DNA of 40,599 bases from Tolypothrix carrinoi HA7290-LM1 (GTDB taxonomy: Bacteria; Cyanobacteriota; Cyanobacteriia; Cyanobacteriales; Nostocaceae). The position numbers were made by a program. The DNA lies in NCBI GenBank assembly GCA_019358935.1, contig JAHHIK010000078.1, positions 1 to 40,599 of the forward strand, in the 5' to 3' direction. Shown here one piece after another: positions 15,001 through 30,000 of this stretch (within the stretch, counting starts at the first letter, position 1; each line of letters opens with the position of its first letter).

Positions 15001-18000
15001 GTCTAAACTCCAGTCGGTTAAGGTGCTGGAGTATGCCATTTATTTCTCATCTTACCCTCTCTTCCAAGATCCCAAATGGGTTCTATATATTGCCCCCAAA
15101 AACTGTATCGTAAACTACCTTTTTTTAGCGCTCGCATAAGTTTTCGGTCTACTGACCTTACGGTTGGCACAGGCATCGGCGGTATGGTAAACTCTATCCA
15201 AGCAAAGAGTGGTACAGCGCGAGGGTTTGGTGGGCGACGGCAGCCCAGGTAAACCGTTCCTCTACGCACCGTCGTCCGTTGCGACCAAATGTTTCGCGGA
15301 GCATGGGATTGGTTGCGATGTAATTGAGTGCAGTAGCGAGATCATACGCAAACTGAGTAGGATGTGTGGGCTCAAGCGTGTGTGGTGTCAGCTCAAGATC
15401 AACCAACAGCCCTGTCTCACCATGAACGACGATTTCTGGTATACCACCGATCGCAGATGCTACGACGGCAGTTCCACAAGCCATCGCTTCAATGTTAACC
15501 AAGCCGAACGGCTCATAGATTGATGGGCAGCAAAAGGCTGCTGCGTGCGAATAAAATTGAATGAGTGCTGCTTGAGGCACGTCTTCGAGCCAGAATACGC
15601 CTGTACGGTGCTTCTGAATTGTCTCGATTCGTGTGCGCAGCTTGTGCCGTAACTCCTCAATGTCTGGGGCTCCTACGCAAAACACAACTTGCAGTGTCGG
15701 GTCAAGGTACTCAATCGCGTCGATTAGGTAGTCAATCCCTTTTTGCTGCGTGATGCGCCCGACAAAGAGTACATATGGACACATCGGGTCGATTCCATAC
15801 TGGAGTAATGCGTATATTGCAGGAGTTTTGCAATATTGCTCGATGTCGATGCCATTATAAATGACTTGAACCTTCTCAGCCGGAGTCGCAAACAATCGTA
15901 GGATATCTTGACGGGTTGCTTCCGATACGGCAATAACCATGTCCGCAGCTTCGATTGCTGTTTGCTCCATCCAACTACTCAGCTGATACCCTCCTGATCC
16001 GAGCTGCTCCTGTTTCCAAGGACGCAGTGGTTCTAGCGAGTGAGCCGTCAGCACAAGCGGAACCCCCCACAGCTTCTTTGCCAAAAAGCCGCCCATGCAG
16101 GTAGACCAATCATGACAATGGACGATATCAGCGTCAAGCGTATCTTTCGCCATCGCTAAGCTGCGTGCGAAGGCATCTAATGGATTAACAAGACGCGGAT
16201 CGGGGCTGTGCTTGATCTCATCCCACATCTGGTATCCTCGTGCTTGAAGGTTGCCTTCGTGACGGTCCCGATCGCCAAAGTAGTGTACTTTTACCGACAG
16301 TGCGCGGGCTAACTCACAGCTAAGATACTGGACATGAACGCCACTTCCGCCATAGACGTTTGGTGGATACTCTTTAGAGAAAATTGCGACTTTTTGAAGT
16401 TTTGGCATATACGTACTTTATACTCTACGCTGAAACGCTTTGTTCAGCAACGCGAACAGTAAAAGCCAAGTAATATGGTCAACTACACGCATTCCTGGGT
16501 CATTTAACACCTGACGAATAGCAACAGCATCGATCTGGTCTAGTGCTGAAGCGCAGATAAATCATTGGGATGATGCTGCTTTTCGACCGATCACCACCAT
16601 CCGAAGGGTATCCAGGGTCAGTGGACTGCCATTCAATCCACCGTAGTATGCTTGCACCTGAAAACCGGCTATTTCAAACATCCGCACTAGGTCTGTCAAA
16701 GTATAAATGTGCACTGTCTCATAGGACTCAGCACGGCGATCATCGGGAAAGATGACAGTTGTACGTACCTTATTACGACTCGTGTAAAGGTCAAAGTGGC
16801 GCTCATAAATGACTATTGATCCATCGTCGTTTCGAGTAACGACGTAGGGAAGATACTGGCGCATCAGAGCATCCCTATGGATGATGTCGATCAAGAAGCA
16901 ACCACCGGGCTTGAGCGCTTTATGCACTTGCTGAAAAACTTTCTGATTTTCATCCTCGTTCTCGAAATAGCCGAAAGCGGTGAACATATTGATCGCAGCA
17001 TCAAACGTGTTTTTGAAGGGAATATCCCGCATATCCTTATGAATCCACTGTACCTCTACATCGTGAGCTTTTGCATCTTCTTTAGCTCGGTGTAGGAACA
17101 CCTCGCTCAGATCCTGTCCGACGATTTGGTAGCCTCGTTGGGCGAGATTAATAGAATGGCGTCCGTAACCACAACAGAGATCGAGGATCTTGTCTCCCCG
17201 TGACAAACCGAGTAGGTTAATGATACCGTCAACCTCGCGAACTGTTCTCTCTGGCGATAAAGAAGATTCATAAATGTGCAAGTGATCTTCCTGACAAAGG
17301 GGTTGATACTGCGGAATATCGCTCATTTTTTCCTCAATTAAGCGTATCGTGATACAAATTGCGGCCGATTGCGGCAAGTATCTAGCGATTCCTTTGTTCG
17401 ACAAGCAAGCAGCGACGTGCATCAATGTTTGTTATCACTCAGATCCACGCAAGCTTTCCACCTAACTACCAGAACCGCACTGTGACAAAAGCCTGTCATA
17501 GCAATCAATGGCATTGCTCAAAGGTCAATGACGGCAAGATTGTGCTGCCCACCATACACATCCCACCATGGCGTGGCATACTGAGCAACTGTCTGGTTAA
17601 ATGCCTGGAGCGTGGGCACTGCCTGCTGTTGCAGCCAGTCACGCAACGCCACGACTCCGCCCTGTACGTAGGCGGCAACGCTACCATGCCAAAGGTCGAG
17701 TCCGTACAGTACGCCAGAGAACGCGGTACCAGCTTCGGCAATGAGCGCGAGTGTCTCGGCAAACACCGGAGCGGTTGCAGTTGCGCTGAGATAGATAAAC
17801 GGTACCTGCGCCATAGTTGCAGCCTCGCGCAGGTGTGTGATCGCGTCCGCATAGTTGTAGGCGTGTTGCCCACTGGCGTTAGCCTGCAAACCGGCTACAT
17901 AACGCACATCTACAGGCAGCTCGGCTTTGAGAACATCCACACCATAGTGAGGCTTGGAAAACTCTTGGATTGATCTTTTGACTTTGTCAGGCTTGATCTG

Positions 18001-27000: not shown

Positions 27001-30000
27001 AGAATAATGCCTTTCTCATCACACAGCTTCTTAAGCGCCTGAAAATATCCTGGAGGGGGGACAATATTGCCACCATTACCAGAGATGGGTTCGACGATCA
27101 TACAAGCAATATTTCCAGAACTTCCATATTCAATGAAGTCATGGATTCGTTCTACGCACAGAAGGTTACATGTCTCTGGTTTCTGTTTGTAGAAGCAGCG
27201 GTGACAATATGGATCAGGTACTTGAATACTTCCAGAAAATAGGTTGGGAAAAGGCTCTTTACGAAAAGCATTTCCCGACAAGCTTGTCATCATCATTGTT
27301 TGCCCTAAGTGACTCCGAAATAATGAGATGACATCTTTCTTCCCTGTAAAATGCTGAGCAATCTTGATTGCACCTTCATTTGCTACGGACCCGCTGGAAA
27401 CTTTAGGATGCACCTTTGTCAAGTTTTCCGGGGAAAGCTTTACTAGTTTTCTCACAACAGTGTTAACTGGGTCAGTTTGAAAAGATGACGTGACATGAAC
27501 TAACTTATCAGCTTGCTCTTTGACTGCTTGCAGAACCTCTGGATGCCCGTAGCCTAGAGACATATTGAATGTCGCGGATGCACAGTCAATGTAACGATTA
27601 CCCTCTGTGTCGTAGAGATATATACCTTTCCCGTACTCTATCAGAGTGTCGCTCACCTTGTGATAGATTAGGTCGTGGATACTTGTCTGTGACTTCATCA
27701 TTTTGACAAGACCCGCTTCGGAGTTCCTTCCAAATTCAGACTCTAGATTCAATGCCTCTTCAAAAGCTCGCATGAATTACAACCTCCTCAAAGTTTGTAC
27801 TCTAAAAAAGTGTGGAATTAGCTAGAATCGCAAAACTCAATTGCTGACAGCAGTCACTTGCTAAACAAACTTGGCTACGGTTCCTCCATCCTTGAGGGGA
27901 GGATTGACTAGCTTAGAAATCGAGTTAACCGCGACGAAAATTGTAGCCATTAATGAATGGTTCGCCAATACCTGATGGTTGTTGAAGCTATTGTCCTGGT
28001 TTTGCAAGATGCAAGAAGTAAAGTAACCAGCCTCAGTATTTTGCTTGTTAATTAGCTTTGAAATACTATCTTAATAGTAAAAGTTAAACACATATCTATA
28101 AACTAACTATAGATAGATACTGTATAAGTAATTGATCGACAACAAGATAGATGAAGATATTGTCAAACGTCACTATTTCTTTCGTGAGATATAGCAATAG
28201 CCATGTAAGTTAGGACATATAATTAGATGAGCGCTGTTAGATATATCGCTTAAACTCGATAGTCTACGAACTGCCATAGAGTATGTCTTGCGTTTATTGT
28301 CCTAACTTATCTGGCTATTGCTATAGCAGCAGTGATCACCACGACTACCAGTAAACCCAAAGTGTCAACGAGTATGTGCCGTTTGCGTCCCTTAATTTTT
28401 TTGCCAGAATCGTAACCAACTTTTTGGGAAACCAAAGTCAGTAAATCGCAAACTTTCGGAAACCTACGTAAAAACAAGGGTTTCAGCCCTGCCGAAAAAC
28501 GAGCCTAACAACGCTTATTAATAGCGATCGTCTTAACATCACCTAACGTTGTTGGCTAAAATGCTCATTTCAACGTACTTTTATGGAAAAGGGATGTTTC
28601 GTTCAAATGCTGATGTGGTAAGGGTTCTAAAAAAGTTTTCGATTTACTGAAAGTTGGCAGTTTCAACGGTTTGGCTGTCCATTATTGCCTCTAAGGGTGA
28701 TGGTTCTCGATCTTGACTGACACGTACCCACAAACGTAATCGCTCGTGGATTTCCTGCCATGTTCCATCTTTTCGCCATTGTCGGAAGTAATGATACACA
28801 GTTTTCCACTTGGGAAAATCATTTGGGAGCATTCGCCACCCCGAAGCCGCACACAAGATATACAAGATTGCGTTAACGATCGCCTCCATATCAACACTAC
28901 GTTTTCGACCTCCAGTTTTTGGCGCAGGAATGAGTTATGATAGCAGTTCCCACTGCTCCGAAGTCATATTACTTGGGTACGATGGATTCATGGCCAAGGT
29001 AACGCTGTCATACTTAACCCTCCTCCGTCACTCTCCCTAGATAAAAAGATGTAACCCTTACCAGGCAAGAATTTTAGTCTAAAGCAATGATTGTATCCAT
29101 CATATTAGAAAATTTTGCCACAAACCTAATCCCAATCAGAGGTTTAAAAGTTGCTTTCGATTTTTGTTTTCGGAGAGTGAACAGCTTCTAAGAAACCAGA
29201 TTTTCTGAGGGCTGGGGAATAAGCTCAAAACCAAAAGCCTGGGCTTTTTTGTGTAGATTATTGATCATTCGCTCACGATAACGCTGCTCATAATAATCCA
29301 TGCCAGGATCGGTGTAATCTCCTCCGGCTGTCCAAAGTTTGTAAGCGACGATAAAATGCGCCCAAGGCGGAATTACTTTTTCCGGCAGTTTGCGCGGCCA
29401 TACGGAAAGCTGTCTTCGGCGCGGTTGACTACAGGACGAGTCTGAGAACTTTTAATTTTGCCACCAGTAATGCGGCTACCAGGACAAAGACCAAGCCAAG
29501 AGGTAAAGTGTTTAACTGTAGGGAATCGACTGGGATCTAAACCAACCTCAGAAAGGATGATTTGTACTGTCAGGACACCAAGACCATCAACTTGGGTAAA
29601 ATCAACCCCACTCATACGGTAAAGATGAGTACGCAAATCAAAGTTAGGTTCATTACCTTGAGGTTTATGGCGAATATGCTTTGGTGGAGTAAGGGGAGAC
29701 TGAGAAATACAGCAGATTGCACCTAAATGAGGTACAGTGAAGTCAGTGCATCAATTGAGAAAATGAGAGCTTATTCCATCGACTTCCGAGAAAAAATAGT
29801 TAATGTTTATGAGCAAGGCAACACCTCAGTCAGAAAAGTTGCTTCTAGATTTGGTGTCACCAAAAGTTTTGTGCAAAAACTGCTGTCAATGAAGAAAGCT
29901 CAAGGTCATGTAGAACCGAGACAGCAGGGCGGAGGAATGAAGGGTAAGTTAGATGGATATGAAGCTAAACTGTTGAGTATGGTTGAAGAAGCTCCAGACG

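Follow-up and report, generated by a model that had tools for sequence, protein, structure and literature searches.

Organization of the gene cluster and its plasmid context

The window, i.e., the whole 40,599-nt stretch analyzed here, is a contig of the filamentous cyanobacterium Tolypothrix carrinoi HA7290-LM1. It carries ten intact, co-oriented genes on the minus strand (15194-27773), bordered by IS elements. The features are organized as follows:

2477..9727: plasmid backbone with a replication region in synteny with pANSO36D, a tyrosine recombinase and a ParA-like ATPase
12454..14901: left flank, IS4-family and DDE_5 transposase genes
15194..16408, minus: GlgM-like GT4 alpha-glucosyltransferase (404 aa; TIGR02149), this variant only
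16562..17425, minus: class I SAM methyltransferase (likely start near 17326; PF13649), this variant only
17518..18567, minus: LacD-type class I aldolase with an altered donor-phosphate pocket (349 aa; PRK12858 above cut-off), core
18702..19415, minus: classical SDR (237 aa; PF00106, TGxxxGxG and YxxxK motifs), core
19493..20392, minus: DUF4037-type nucleotidyltransferase (299 aa; atlas feature score 0.98, TM 0.85-0.87), accessory
20413..22257, minus: calcineurin-like/purple-acid-phosphatase-like metallophosphoesterase (614 aa; PF00149), accessory
22379..23410, minus: Zn-dependent polyol dehydrogenase outside the GutB1 clade (likely start 23386, giving 335 aa), core
23554..24909, minus: MATE exporter (451 aa; TIGR00797 above cut-off), this variant only
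24910..25527: 618-base gap with mobile-element remnants (repeats matched on contigs C109, C94 and C119 of the same genome)
25528..26436, minus: YktC1-type inositol-monophosphatase-family phosphatase (302 aa; PF00459), core role
26433..27773, minus: GabT1-family class III aminotransferase (446 aa; PF00202, azasugar motif), core
28300..32086: right flank, transposase fragments, IS630 and IS4-family transposases
34129..39024, minus: relaxase and NikA-like genes for mobilisation, broken up by IS elements (PF03432, PF21983)

All genes named in the survey's finding are thus present and intact, and the transposase genes on both sides agree with the IS flanks it described. The metallophosphoesterase and the DUF4037-type nucleotidyltransferase lie inside the same span and were missing from its list. 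The phosphatase and aminotransferase genes overlap by 4 bases, while the gap with its IS-like remnant and the MATE gene split the phosphatase from the dehydrogenase, so that the canonical contiguous gabT1-yktC1-gutB1 order is absent. This remnant may disturb expression here. The GC content is 0.44 for the aminotransferase-phosphatase pair and the MATE gene versus 0.47-0.52 for the downstream genes.

The proposed plasmid nature of the contig is supported by backbone homology and mobilisation genes: positions 2477-5679 and 7304-8340 share 82% and 79% identity, respectively, with the 35.8-kb Nostoc plasmid pANSO36D, and relaxase, NikA and ParA-like genes are encoded. The contig ends do not overlap, so the support is for a plasmid and does not extend to a closed circle. 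Two further metagenomes also cover all ten genes.

The aminotransferase and phosphatase belong to the GabT1 and YktC1 families

Three-gene azasugar clusters have been defined by a PF00202 aminotransferase that shares more than 40% identity with GabT1 and has the consensus motif SGNXFRXXXFPN...XVPXPYCXRC, accompanied within three ORFs by a phosphatase (PF00459 or HAD) and a dehydrogenase (PF00107/PF08240) (PMC8382821). The references compared here were Bacillus triad enzymes, to which the window aminotransferase is 68-70% identical, and the Bacillus atrophaeus cluster representative P0297 (70%). These triads include the loci of B. inaquosorum KCTC 13429, B. gaemokensis and B. rugosus SPB7, which are among the organisms listed in PMC8382821. 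The motif is present, with Ile replacing Leu and a 5-residue spacer; a relaxed pattern matches 42 of 53 rows and none of four distant aminotransferases, missing seven family members. The PF00459 gene overlaps the aminotransferase gene, and the dehydrogenase is the third ORF downstream; in four relatives with contiguous clusters its orthologue lies 5 to 8 ORFs from the aminotransferase.

We reproduced the identities reported by the survey, both to the Bacillus and Streptomyces triads (aminotransferase 64-70%, phosphatase 53-69%, dehydrogenase 28-32%) and to two Cylindrospermum loci (aminotransferase 85-86%, dehydrogenase 84-85%). The phosphatase is 67-69% identical to Bacillus triad phosphatases and 79-82% to three cyanobacterial ones. 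The cyanobacterial aminotransferase clade is nested within the GabT1 family (SH-aLRT 99). Judged by sequence, the two proteins are true GabT1 and YktC1 family members, as had been proposed.

Distribution among Nostocaceae

The aminotransferase, the dehydrogenase and the aldolase were found in six of 389, six of 381 and six of 389 genomes, respectively. These are the same six genomes, spread over five genera of Nostocaceae, and in each of them an SDR gene adjoins those of the dehydrogenase and aldolase (78-79% identity to the window SDR in all five relatives). The core genes are under purifying selection (dN/dS 0.05-0.18). Because such a rare core recurs in the same six genomes under purifying selection, each time with the SDR, we regard the cluster as no chance assembly and its aminotransferase, dehydrogenase and aldolase as parts of one pathway.

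The survey placed the closest relatives in Cylindrospermum, but the nearest aminotransferase (88%) and phosphatase (82%) are those of Brasilonema sp. UFV-L1. The link to Cylindrospermum stands in part: two of three genomes of the genus carry the core, and the third, which is 99% complete, has no match to the aminotransferase, dehydrogenase or aldolase. The host itself falls outside this genus, and none of its ten genus mates has the core genes. Both Cylindrospermum loci lack an intact YktC1-type gene and encode a HAD hexitol phosphatase instead. Among the relatives, such a HAD protein, scoring above the hexitol phosphatase HxpB cut-off, replaces or joins the YktC1-type gene.

The dehydrogenase is not a GutB1 orthologue

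Orthology of the window dehydrogenase to GutB1, as implied for g05173 by the survey's cluster name, is ruled out. In the tree, the triad dehydrogenases from outside the cyanobacteria, all 31 of them, form one clade with the named Paenibacillus polymyxa GutB1 (SH-aLRT 99-100), with the window enzyme outside (28-33% identity), and forcing it into this clade is rejected by the AU test (p-AU 0.0014). The labels ‘gabT1-yktc1-gutB1’ and ‘deoxynojirimycin-type’ therefore overstate the case. No gutB1 remnant was detected in the 618-base gap (ten GutB1-clade queries, nothing better than E 0.45), and with the queries used the rest of the six genomes likewise gave no GutB1-clade gene, which leaves the window-type dehydrogenase as the only one common to all six.

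Its Zn ligands are intact. It is 82-85% identical to five cyanobacterial orthologues and 63-69% to a Chloroflexota polyol-dehydrogenase family, from which it derives. Its relatives are part of sugar-uptake operons and look like dehydrogenases acting on secondary alcohols (polyols). Within a 14-protein comparison set, the top-scoring enzyme of known function is the mannitol dehydrogenase of Haloarcula hispanica (201 bits, 37% identity), followed by Tdh (171 bits), GutB1 (160 bits) and sorbitol dehydrogenase (159 bits); an identity of 37% fixes neither substrate nor regiochemistry. The window and H. hispanica enzymes share an FGV motif and a DxH histidine that GutB1s lack, but the histidine also occurs in Thr dehydrogenase. 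In a tree with one characterised mannitol dehydrogenase, the deep branches settle neither grouping nor separation of the window enzyme.

The aldolase has lost the phosphate-binding arginine

The aldolase, like the dehydrogenase, descends from a Chloroflexota-type sugar-catabolic family. It retains the Schiff-base K214, whereas CGRATW has become YGLDLW and SAG has become SAT. The phosphate-binding Arg is lost in all nine cluster aldolases and kept in 112 of 112 others: the position of YihT R253 is occupied by Leu, the next residue is Asp and Gly263 is lost (9/9 in the cluster clade). The protein scores 279 bits against a cut-off of 432 for the LacD equivalog TIGR01232, with the Arg to Leu change in the DHAP-phosphate pocket.

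Accessory and variant-specific genes

The MATE exporter, methyltransferase and glycosyltransferase that the survey included in the cluster are indeed present here, but they lie outside the shared core since none was found in the five related genomes (at 1e-30, 1e-20 and 1e-40, respectively). The MATE protein is 30-38% identical to MATEs adjoining non-cyanobacterial azasugar triads, and the methyltransferase gives weak matches to N-methyltransferases. The GT4 protein exceeds the GlgM/glgA_Coryne cut-off (TIGR02149, 488 versus 302 bits) and matches the alpha-maltose-1-phosphate synthase PDB 6TVP (E 9e-95). The metallophosphoesterase has a 55% identical paralogue on contig C148 of the same genome, and PhoD occurs in or beside the cluster in four relatives. 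The DUF4037-type nucleotidyltransferase is 52-53% identical to genes in three of the five related clusters. Three relatives carry a second aminotransferase and one or two extra dehydrogenases.

Comparison with known systems

The cluster resembles the deoxynojirimycin (DNJ) cluster gabT1-yktC1-gutB1 of Bacillus velezensis/atrophaeus (PMC8382821) in its azasugar-motif class III aminotransferase, directly followed by an IMPase-family phosphatase; within 5 kb, both also have a Zn dehydrogenase and an exporter. It differs in its non-adjacent dehydrogenase of another clade, the added conserved SDR and altered aldolase, and a cyanobacterial host absent from the PMC8382821 list. The gabT1-gutB1-HAD clusters of P. 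polymyxa and Chitinophaga pinensis (DNJ, DAB-1) share the HAD phosphatase with the Cylindrospermum versions, and C. pinensis makes a pyrrolidine, as proposed below; their aminotransferases are only about 50% alike to the window's, and they have a GutB1 homologue oxidising a primary alcohol and no aldolase. Since Chitinophaga makes the pyrrolidine DAB-1 with a GutB1 homologue, a pyrrolidine needs no swapped enzyme.

The H. hispanica enzyme above is MscM, an MDR mannitol 2-dehydrogenase (PMC11519228) that is catabolic, acts on mannitol and is distant from the window dehydrogenase. With the tagatose-1,6-bisphosphate aldolase LacD and the sulfofructose-phosphate aldolase YihT, the window aldolase shares the Schiff-base Lys and the Asp, Lys, Glu and Ser positions; it departs from them in the phosphate pocket. 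Passages of PMC9092360 describe how anisomycin, also a pyrrolidine, is built by an aminotransferase and a C-C-forming enzyme together with an SDR, a glycosyltransferase and a methyltransferase (AniQ, AniP, AniO, AniN, AniK). Anisomycin derives from tyrosine; the likeness is one of analogy only.

Proposed product and alternative explanations

The ten-gene plasmid cluster very likely makes an iminosugar of some kind, probably a sugar mimic that inhibits glycosidases, which retains the iminosugar logic of the survey's finding without its deoxynojirimycin type. We lean towards a five-membered glycosidase inhibitor, a DMDP-type pyrrolidine rather than deoxynojirimycin, as the product of this mobile cluster. 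A hexulose 6-phosphate would be aminated, dephosphorylated and then oxidised at C5, and after ring closure the SDR would reduce the product. By analogy with Bacillus, GabT1 would aminate fructose 6-phosphate (or its C4 epimer) to a 2-amino-2-deoxyhexitol 6-phosphate, from which the YktC1-type phosphatase (HAD/HxpB in relatives) would remove the phosphate. The mannitol-dehydrogenase-like enzyme would then oxidise C5 instead of C6; because mannitol is symmetric, C5 of the aminomannitol resembles the C2 attacked by mannitol 2-dehydrogenase. The resulting amino-ketose would close to a pyrroline, which the SDR may reduce as a cyclic-imine reductase, as its conserved linkage and the anisomycin AniN precedent suggest. 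The altered pocket suggests that the aldolase acts on a ketose without a 1-phosphate, most probably to provide the hexulose 6-phosphate or to epimerise it at C4. In the plasmid variant, MATE is predicted to export the product, and, speculatively, the methyltransferase would N-methylate and the GlgM-like enzyme glucosylate it. Further observations count against the DMDP reading: the Brasilonema aldolase has Met in place of the Schiff-base Lys, and a Pseudanabaena MAG combines a HAD gene with the aminotransferase, with neither dehydrogenase nor aldolase found. In addition, according to PMC8382821, dehydrogenase clusters are not yet predictive of the product.

A nojirimycin/deoxynojirimycin-type piperidine, with a non-orthologous GutB1 stand-in oxidising C6 and the SDR and aldolase-like protein epimerising and reducing, is rather unlikely. 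In its favour, DNJ producers have the most similar aminotransferases and phosphatases, no enzymes have yet been assigned to the epimerase and reductase steps of DNJ formation, and the producers' dehydrogenases are heterogeneous (about 32% alike; PMC8382821). However, all sampled triad dehydrogenases form one clade without the window enzyme, whose relatives resemble enzymes of the secondary-alcohol type and belong to sugar-uptake operons, and PMC8402191 states that there is no report of nojirimycin from cyanobacteria. The aldolase could instead change the skeleton, yielding altro/galacto isomers from tagatose 6-phosphate or seven- to nine-carbon homologues by dihydroxyacetone aldol extension, or a pentose route could lead to nectrisine/DAB-1. 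Its presence in all six clusters under purifying selection, the uniform absence of the Arg with which YihT binds the DHAP phosphate, the additional aminotransferase and dehydrogenases of three relatives and an iminotetrasaccharide cited by title from Anabaena sp. would fit; the aldolase substrate is unreadable from sequence, one copy misses the Schiff-base Lys, and DMDP is the sole monomeric iminosugar that we found reported from Nostocaceae in the open literature, all of which makes this an unlikely reading.

A ValM- or inosamine-like pathway leading to an aminocyclitol or another amino-polyol is quite improbable. ValM of validamycin shares a 40% network cluster with GabT1, the phosphatase is of the IMPase family, and a GT4 with a nucleotidyltransferase is reminiscent of pseudo-oligosaccharide pathways. 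ValM is, however, 50% identical to GabT1 without a phosphatase neighbour, compared to 68-70% to GabT1/YktC1 for the window pair; none of the six clusters has a cyclase gene, and the dehydrogenase, with a score of 206, falls short of the IolM cut-off of 450. The Chloroflexota-type sugar-catabolic ancestry of dehydrogenase and aldolase, the GC difference and the IS remnant could also indicate two unrelated modules, with an orphan gabT1-yktc1 pair lying beside a block for hexitol/tagatose catabolism that comprises the dehydrogenase, SDR and LacD genes, all perhaps silent on an IS-ridden plasmid. We consider this very improbable, given that the genes co-occur exactly, in six of about 389 genomes, although the accessory genes are shuffled, and given the two metagenomes with the same set, the lack of a sugar importer or tagatose kinase and the loss of the pocket needed for tagatose bisphosphate.

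Implications

DMDP has been reported from Cylindrospermum since 2003, as cited in passages of PMC8402191, and the core in two of three genomes of that genus supports the cluster as a candidate for the DMDP route, in line with the survey. The same passages report no Yktc1/GutB1 homologues in cyanobacteria, which says little, as only two Synechococcus strains were searched there. In the open literature we found no published cyanobacterial azasugar cluster and no DMDP gene cluster. Twelve terms matched no cyanobacterial genus among the 400 strains tabulated in PMC8382821, and the 2022 review PMC9092360 has no DMDP biosynthesis section. The cluster begins like the known bacterial azasugar pathway and then departs from it in its enzymes, making it a candidate DMDP route.

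More tentatively, the Nostocaceae clusters may possibly be the first gene-level route to ketimine-derived iminosugars of the DMDP type, with a recruited mannitol-dehydrogenase-like enzyme steering the azasugar intermediate into a five-membered ring, the SDR as the long-missing ring reductase, a repurposed LacD aldolase that has lost its donor-phosphate pocket as hexulose-6-phosphate aldolase/epimerase or chain extender, and a plasmid variant leading to an undescribed methylated/glucosylated iminosugar. With a core of five small genes and cultured carriers (Cylindrospermum NIES-4074 and FACHB-282, Brasilonema UFV-L1), three questions become directly testable, namely what controls azasugar ring size, which enzyme is the cyclic-imine reductase and what a class I aldolase without the phosphate arginine does. 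DMDP is a cyanobacterial anti-grazer compound, and the iminosugar likely serves in grazer deterrence. If true, a grazer-defence trait would travel on small plasmids among Nostocales.

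Gene cluster and plasmid setting

The window is the whole of C78, a 40.6-kb contig of a 7.96-Mb genome (99.65% complete), whose host shares one GTDB family with Cylindrospermum. The cluster comprises ten intact genes:

27773 to 15194, minus strand: class III aminotransferase, IMPase-family phosphatase, MATE, Zn dehydrogenase, metallophosphoesterase, DUF4037 nucleotidyltransferase, SDR, LacD-type aldolase, methyltransferase, GT4

The metallophosphoesterase has a close paralogue (55%) in its own genome, where none was found for the other nine. IS genes border the cluster on both sides, and outside the cluster and the IS genes the contig encodes a relaxase, NikA, a ParA-like ATPase and a recombinase. 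The Nostoc plasmid pANSO36D is matched over 3.2 kb at 82% and 1.0 kb at 79%; no overlap was found between the contig ends. Two overlapping contigs (14110-25157 and 25128-29589) of one sequencing run, possibly the source run, cover the cluster with 0 differences.

Five co-oriented ORFs at 1326-5679, without Pfam or NCBIfam match, are conserved in small Nostoc plasmids, and the end of the last one matches a gene annotated as replication initiator A. Backbone pieces at 8602-10882 and 34163-40478 are 82-91% identical to C69 and C109, two contigs of the same genome that are, by this resemblance, sister plasmids. At 11466-13989, a TPR protein is followed by an ORF fusing parts of IS4 and IS630 transposases. 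The promoter scan (15 sites versus 18.5 expected) was uninformative, none of the 19 predicted terminators (11.7 ± 3.4 expected) is used as evidence, the Rfam search gave 0 matches, and run X7, which carries an RNA label although it is probably DNA, covered short pieces only.

Aminotransferase and phosphatase

The scan of the genome collection yielded 47 loci, five of them cyanobacterial. The window aminotransferase is 68-70% identical to the triad enzymes of Bacillus and 64-66% to those of Streptomyces, and the phosphatase 67-69% and 53-55%, respectively. The survey's finding had left open whether these Bacillus triads correspond to a named record; this doubt is removed, as three of the Bacillus organisms compared appear in the text or table of the available part of PMC8382821. 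The window aminotransferase also contains the published azasugar motif and shares 70% identity with P0297, the representative from B. atrophaeus, of which a producer strain is known. The cyanobacterial aminotransferases form a single clade (SH-aLRT 99) in a 32-row tree from which near-duplicate Bacillus and actinomycete rows were omitted; all trees in this study are quick trees with SH-aLRT support only. The nearest aminotransferase is that of Brasilonema sp. UFV-L1 (88-89%), followed by Cylindrospermum (85-86%), and a PDB search with the aminotransferase found nothing close (best E-value 1e-69). P0270, an aminotransferase assigned by its label to Nostoc commune and located on a contig of 6.3 kb, is 74% identical, further off than the other Nostocales copies.

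Both Cylindrospermum loci encode a HAD phosphatase, scoring above the HxpB cut-off in FACHB-282, and have no intact YktC1-type gene. In NIES-4074 (L004:11341-11561) only 36 codons of this gene are left, and behind them comes a second copy of the aminotransferase end; loss of the gene is in progress, with the HAD present.

The dehydrogenase differs from GutB1

The gutB1 label initially given to g05173 (22379-23410, minus strand) had to be abandoned. In a tree of 83 rows, P. polymyxa GutB1, taken from the named gene in its plasmid record, falls together with 31 non-cyanobacterial triad dehydrogenases into one clade (support 99) that excludes the window enzyme. Seven of the 38 non-cyanobacterial triad dehydrogenases had been removed beforehand by a 480-aa filter on ORF calls, and the comparison rows were picked by similarity to the window dehydrogenase, which favours separation from GutB1. 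An AU test on 19 rows rejected a clade of the window dehydrogenase and the GutB1s (p 0.0014). Judged by sequence, the window dehydrogenase is not GutB1. No better candidate was found elsewhere: a myxobacterial query for a GutB1-type gene returned the same dehydrogenase as best match (34-36%) in 5/5 related genomes, ten GutB1-clade queries found nothing better in the own genome, and the gap between phosphatase and MATE contains no gutB1 remnant.

The window dehydrogenase and its cyanobacterial orthologues nest among 60-69% identical proteins, from Chloroflexota where named. A sugar ABC transporter, an SDR and more dehydrogenases are encoded on the longest metagenome contig of this group, and the aminotransferase found no match at any of the 80 loci. 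Within a set of 14 comparison proteins, the top score among enzymes with an established function belongs to MscM, a mannitol dehydrogenase from H. hispanica (201 bits), ahead of Tdh (171), GutB1 (160) and sorbitol dehydrogenase (159); MscM was identified by its position between mscE and mscR, as described in the available part of PMC11519228. Uncharacterised relatives scoring above MscM adjoin xylulokinase or sugar transporters. The tree gives no clear link to MscM, whose putative kinship with the window dehydrogenase is a lead. The best PDB match of the window dehydrogenase is 4EJ6, which may be related to D-altritol 5-dehydrogenase.

The aldolase and its donor-phosphate pocket

The aldolase passes the broad tagatose-bisphosphate-aldolase model and fails the lacD equivalog. 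Of its 120 best homologues, eight (70-90%) group with it and 112 (55-59%, Chloroflexota where named) stand apart. The nine cluster-type aldolases all contain YGLD[LI]W, where the 112 others have Gly-Arg-Ala-Thr-Trp; all nine have lost Gly263, and eight keep the Schiff-base Lys214. In the Brasilonema aldolase (L053:10249-11271), the Schiff-base Lys is replaced by Met. According to the available part of PMC8006165, YihT binds the phosphate of DHAP by Ser226, Ser227 and Arg253, which align to Ser261, Ala262 and Leu290 of the window aldolase. On this alignment, the donor-phosphate pocket is thus remodelled. We infer a substrate without a 1-phosphate; candidates are the 6-phosphates of fructose and tagatose, and amino-ketoses. 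A structure prediction from a five-row alignment (mean pLDDT 50) was set aside.

A rare core shared by six genomes

Among Nostocaceae, the aminotransferase and the aldolase were each found in 6/389 genomes and the dehydrogenase in 6/381, the six being identical. They span five genera, with 0/10 genus mates of the host and 2/3 Cylindrospermum-genus genomes; wider samples, own genome included, counted 2/401 genomes for the order and 2/401 for the phylum. Dehydrogenase, SDR and aldolase genes are adjacent in 5/5 relatives, in Brasilonema on a different contig from the aminotransferase block. The accessory genes vary: glucokinase, EamA transporter, PhoD and HAD phosphatase occur in 4/5 relatives each, the nucleotidyltransferase in 3/5, and a second aminotransferase with extra dehydrogenases in 3/5. 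Since the genera are scattered and the accessories shuffled, chance linkage of the core is unlikely, though kin are not independent. All five core genes have a pairwise dN/dS of 0.05-0.18, values that are rough given the high dS.

In a lichen metagenome, coverage of the window's own ten-gene version is even and low (sequences about 96-99% alike), and a biofilm metagenome covers most of it (about 90-95%). Metagenome contigs bridge GT4-methyltransferase, aldolase-SDR, nucleotidyltransferase-phosphoesterase, phosphoesterase-dehydrogenase and phosphatase-aminotransferase; none spans the whole cluster. A search for GT4, methyltransferase and MATE, confined to the five related genomes that carry the cluster and run without a positive control, found none of the three there. 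Searches with the SDR returned generic relatives only (identity ≤39%).

A masking scheme, with kinase or nucleotidyltransferase acting inside and PhoD or metallophosphoesterase unmasking, is only a loose idea, strict pairing being absent across the six clusters. The extra module of three relatives (L002:13454-17717, L004:13414-17687, L003:4750-7181) pairs dehydrogenases with a second class III aminotransferase, which is 27-28% identical to the first and lacks the azasugar motif. One of these dehydrogenases (L002:16668-17717) has no catalytic Zn ligands and might be reductase-like.

Proposed pathway and product

In the known azasugar pathway, fructose 6-phosphate undergoes amination and dephosphorylation to 2-amino-2-deoxymannitol, which GutB1 oxidizes at C6 to give a six-membered ring; the epimerase and the reductase are unknown (PMC8382821, available part). 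The comparisons above establish the enzyme families, the non-orthology to GutB1, the co-occurrence, the selection on the core genes and the altered aldolase pocket; the substrates, regiochemistry, SDR role and product of the route proposed here are predictions, as would be any ecological role. Amination and dephosphorylation would be retained, the mannitol-2-dehydrogenase-like enzyme would oxidize the aminomannitol at C5, and the product would close to a pyrroline. The ever-present SDR could reduce this pyrroline (as precedent, AniN; PMC9092360, available part), yielding DMDP or a stereoisomer. DMDP has been reported from Cylindrospermum (as cited in the available parts of PMC8402191 and PMC6070937).

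The cluster very probably directs synthesis of an iminosugar of some kind, and we lean slightly towards a DMDP-type pyrrolidine. Against the latter, dehydrogenase grouping does not predict the product (PMC8382821, available part), DAB-1 formation uses a homologue of GutB1, and one Cylindrospermum-genus genome is without the core genes. Furthermore, a Pseudanabaena MAG (L014:7041-9261), which may be incomplete, combines a HAD with an aminotransferase of GabT1 type (77%), and orthologues of the dehydrogenase and the aldolase were not found.

Relation to known clusters

The window cluster falls within the loose definition of a three-gene cluster and outside the canonical gabT1-yktC1-gutB1 arrangement. 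Variation as such is already known, since Streptomyces is described as having ‘disordered’ clusters into which other genes are inserted (PMC8466323, available part). We found no cyanobacterial azasugar cluster in the open literature or in the supplement table of PMC8382821. The absence of Yktc1/GutB1 from cyanobacteria, cited in the survey's finding from PMC8402191, covers only two Synechococcus strains.

Outside Nostocaceae, myxobacterial, clostridial and Bradyrhizobium triads (L015:9556-18869, L018:9899-15751, L029:9917-16995, L031:9875-15093) include a gene for a GH35-like glycosidase, frequently accompanied by a MATE, and L015 a GH77 glucanotransferase as well; these could possibly be self-resistant target enzymes or point to glycosylated products. 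In a Firmicutes MAG (L033:7957-12195), genes for 3-dehydroquinate synthase II and for an aldolase of the DeoC/LacD family lie directly upstream of those for aminotransferase and phosphatase; the locus has no dehydrogenase match and is another aldolase-linked variant. With the window cluster itself, an orphan compound and two unassigned enzyme steps gain a gene set that is small and testable.
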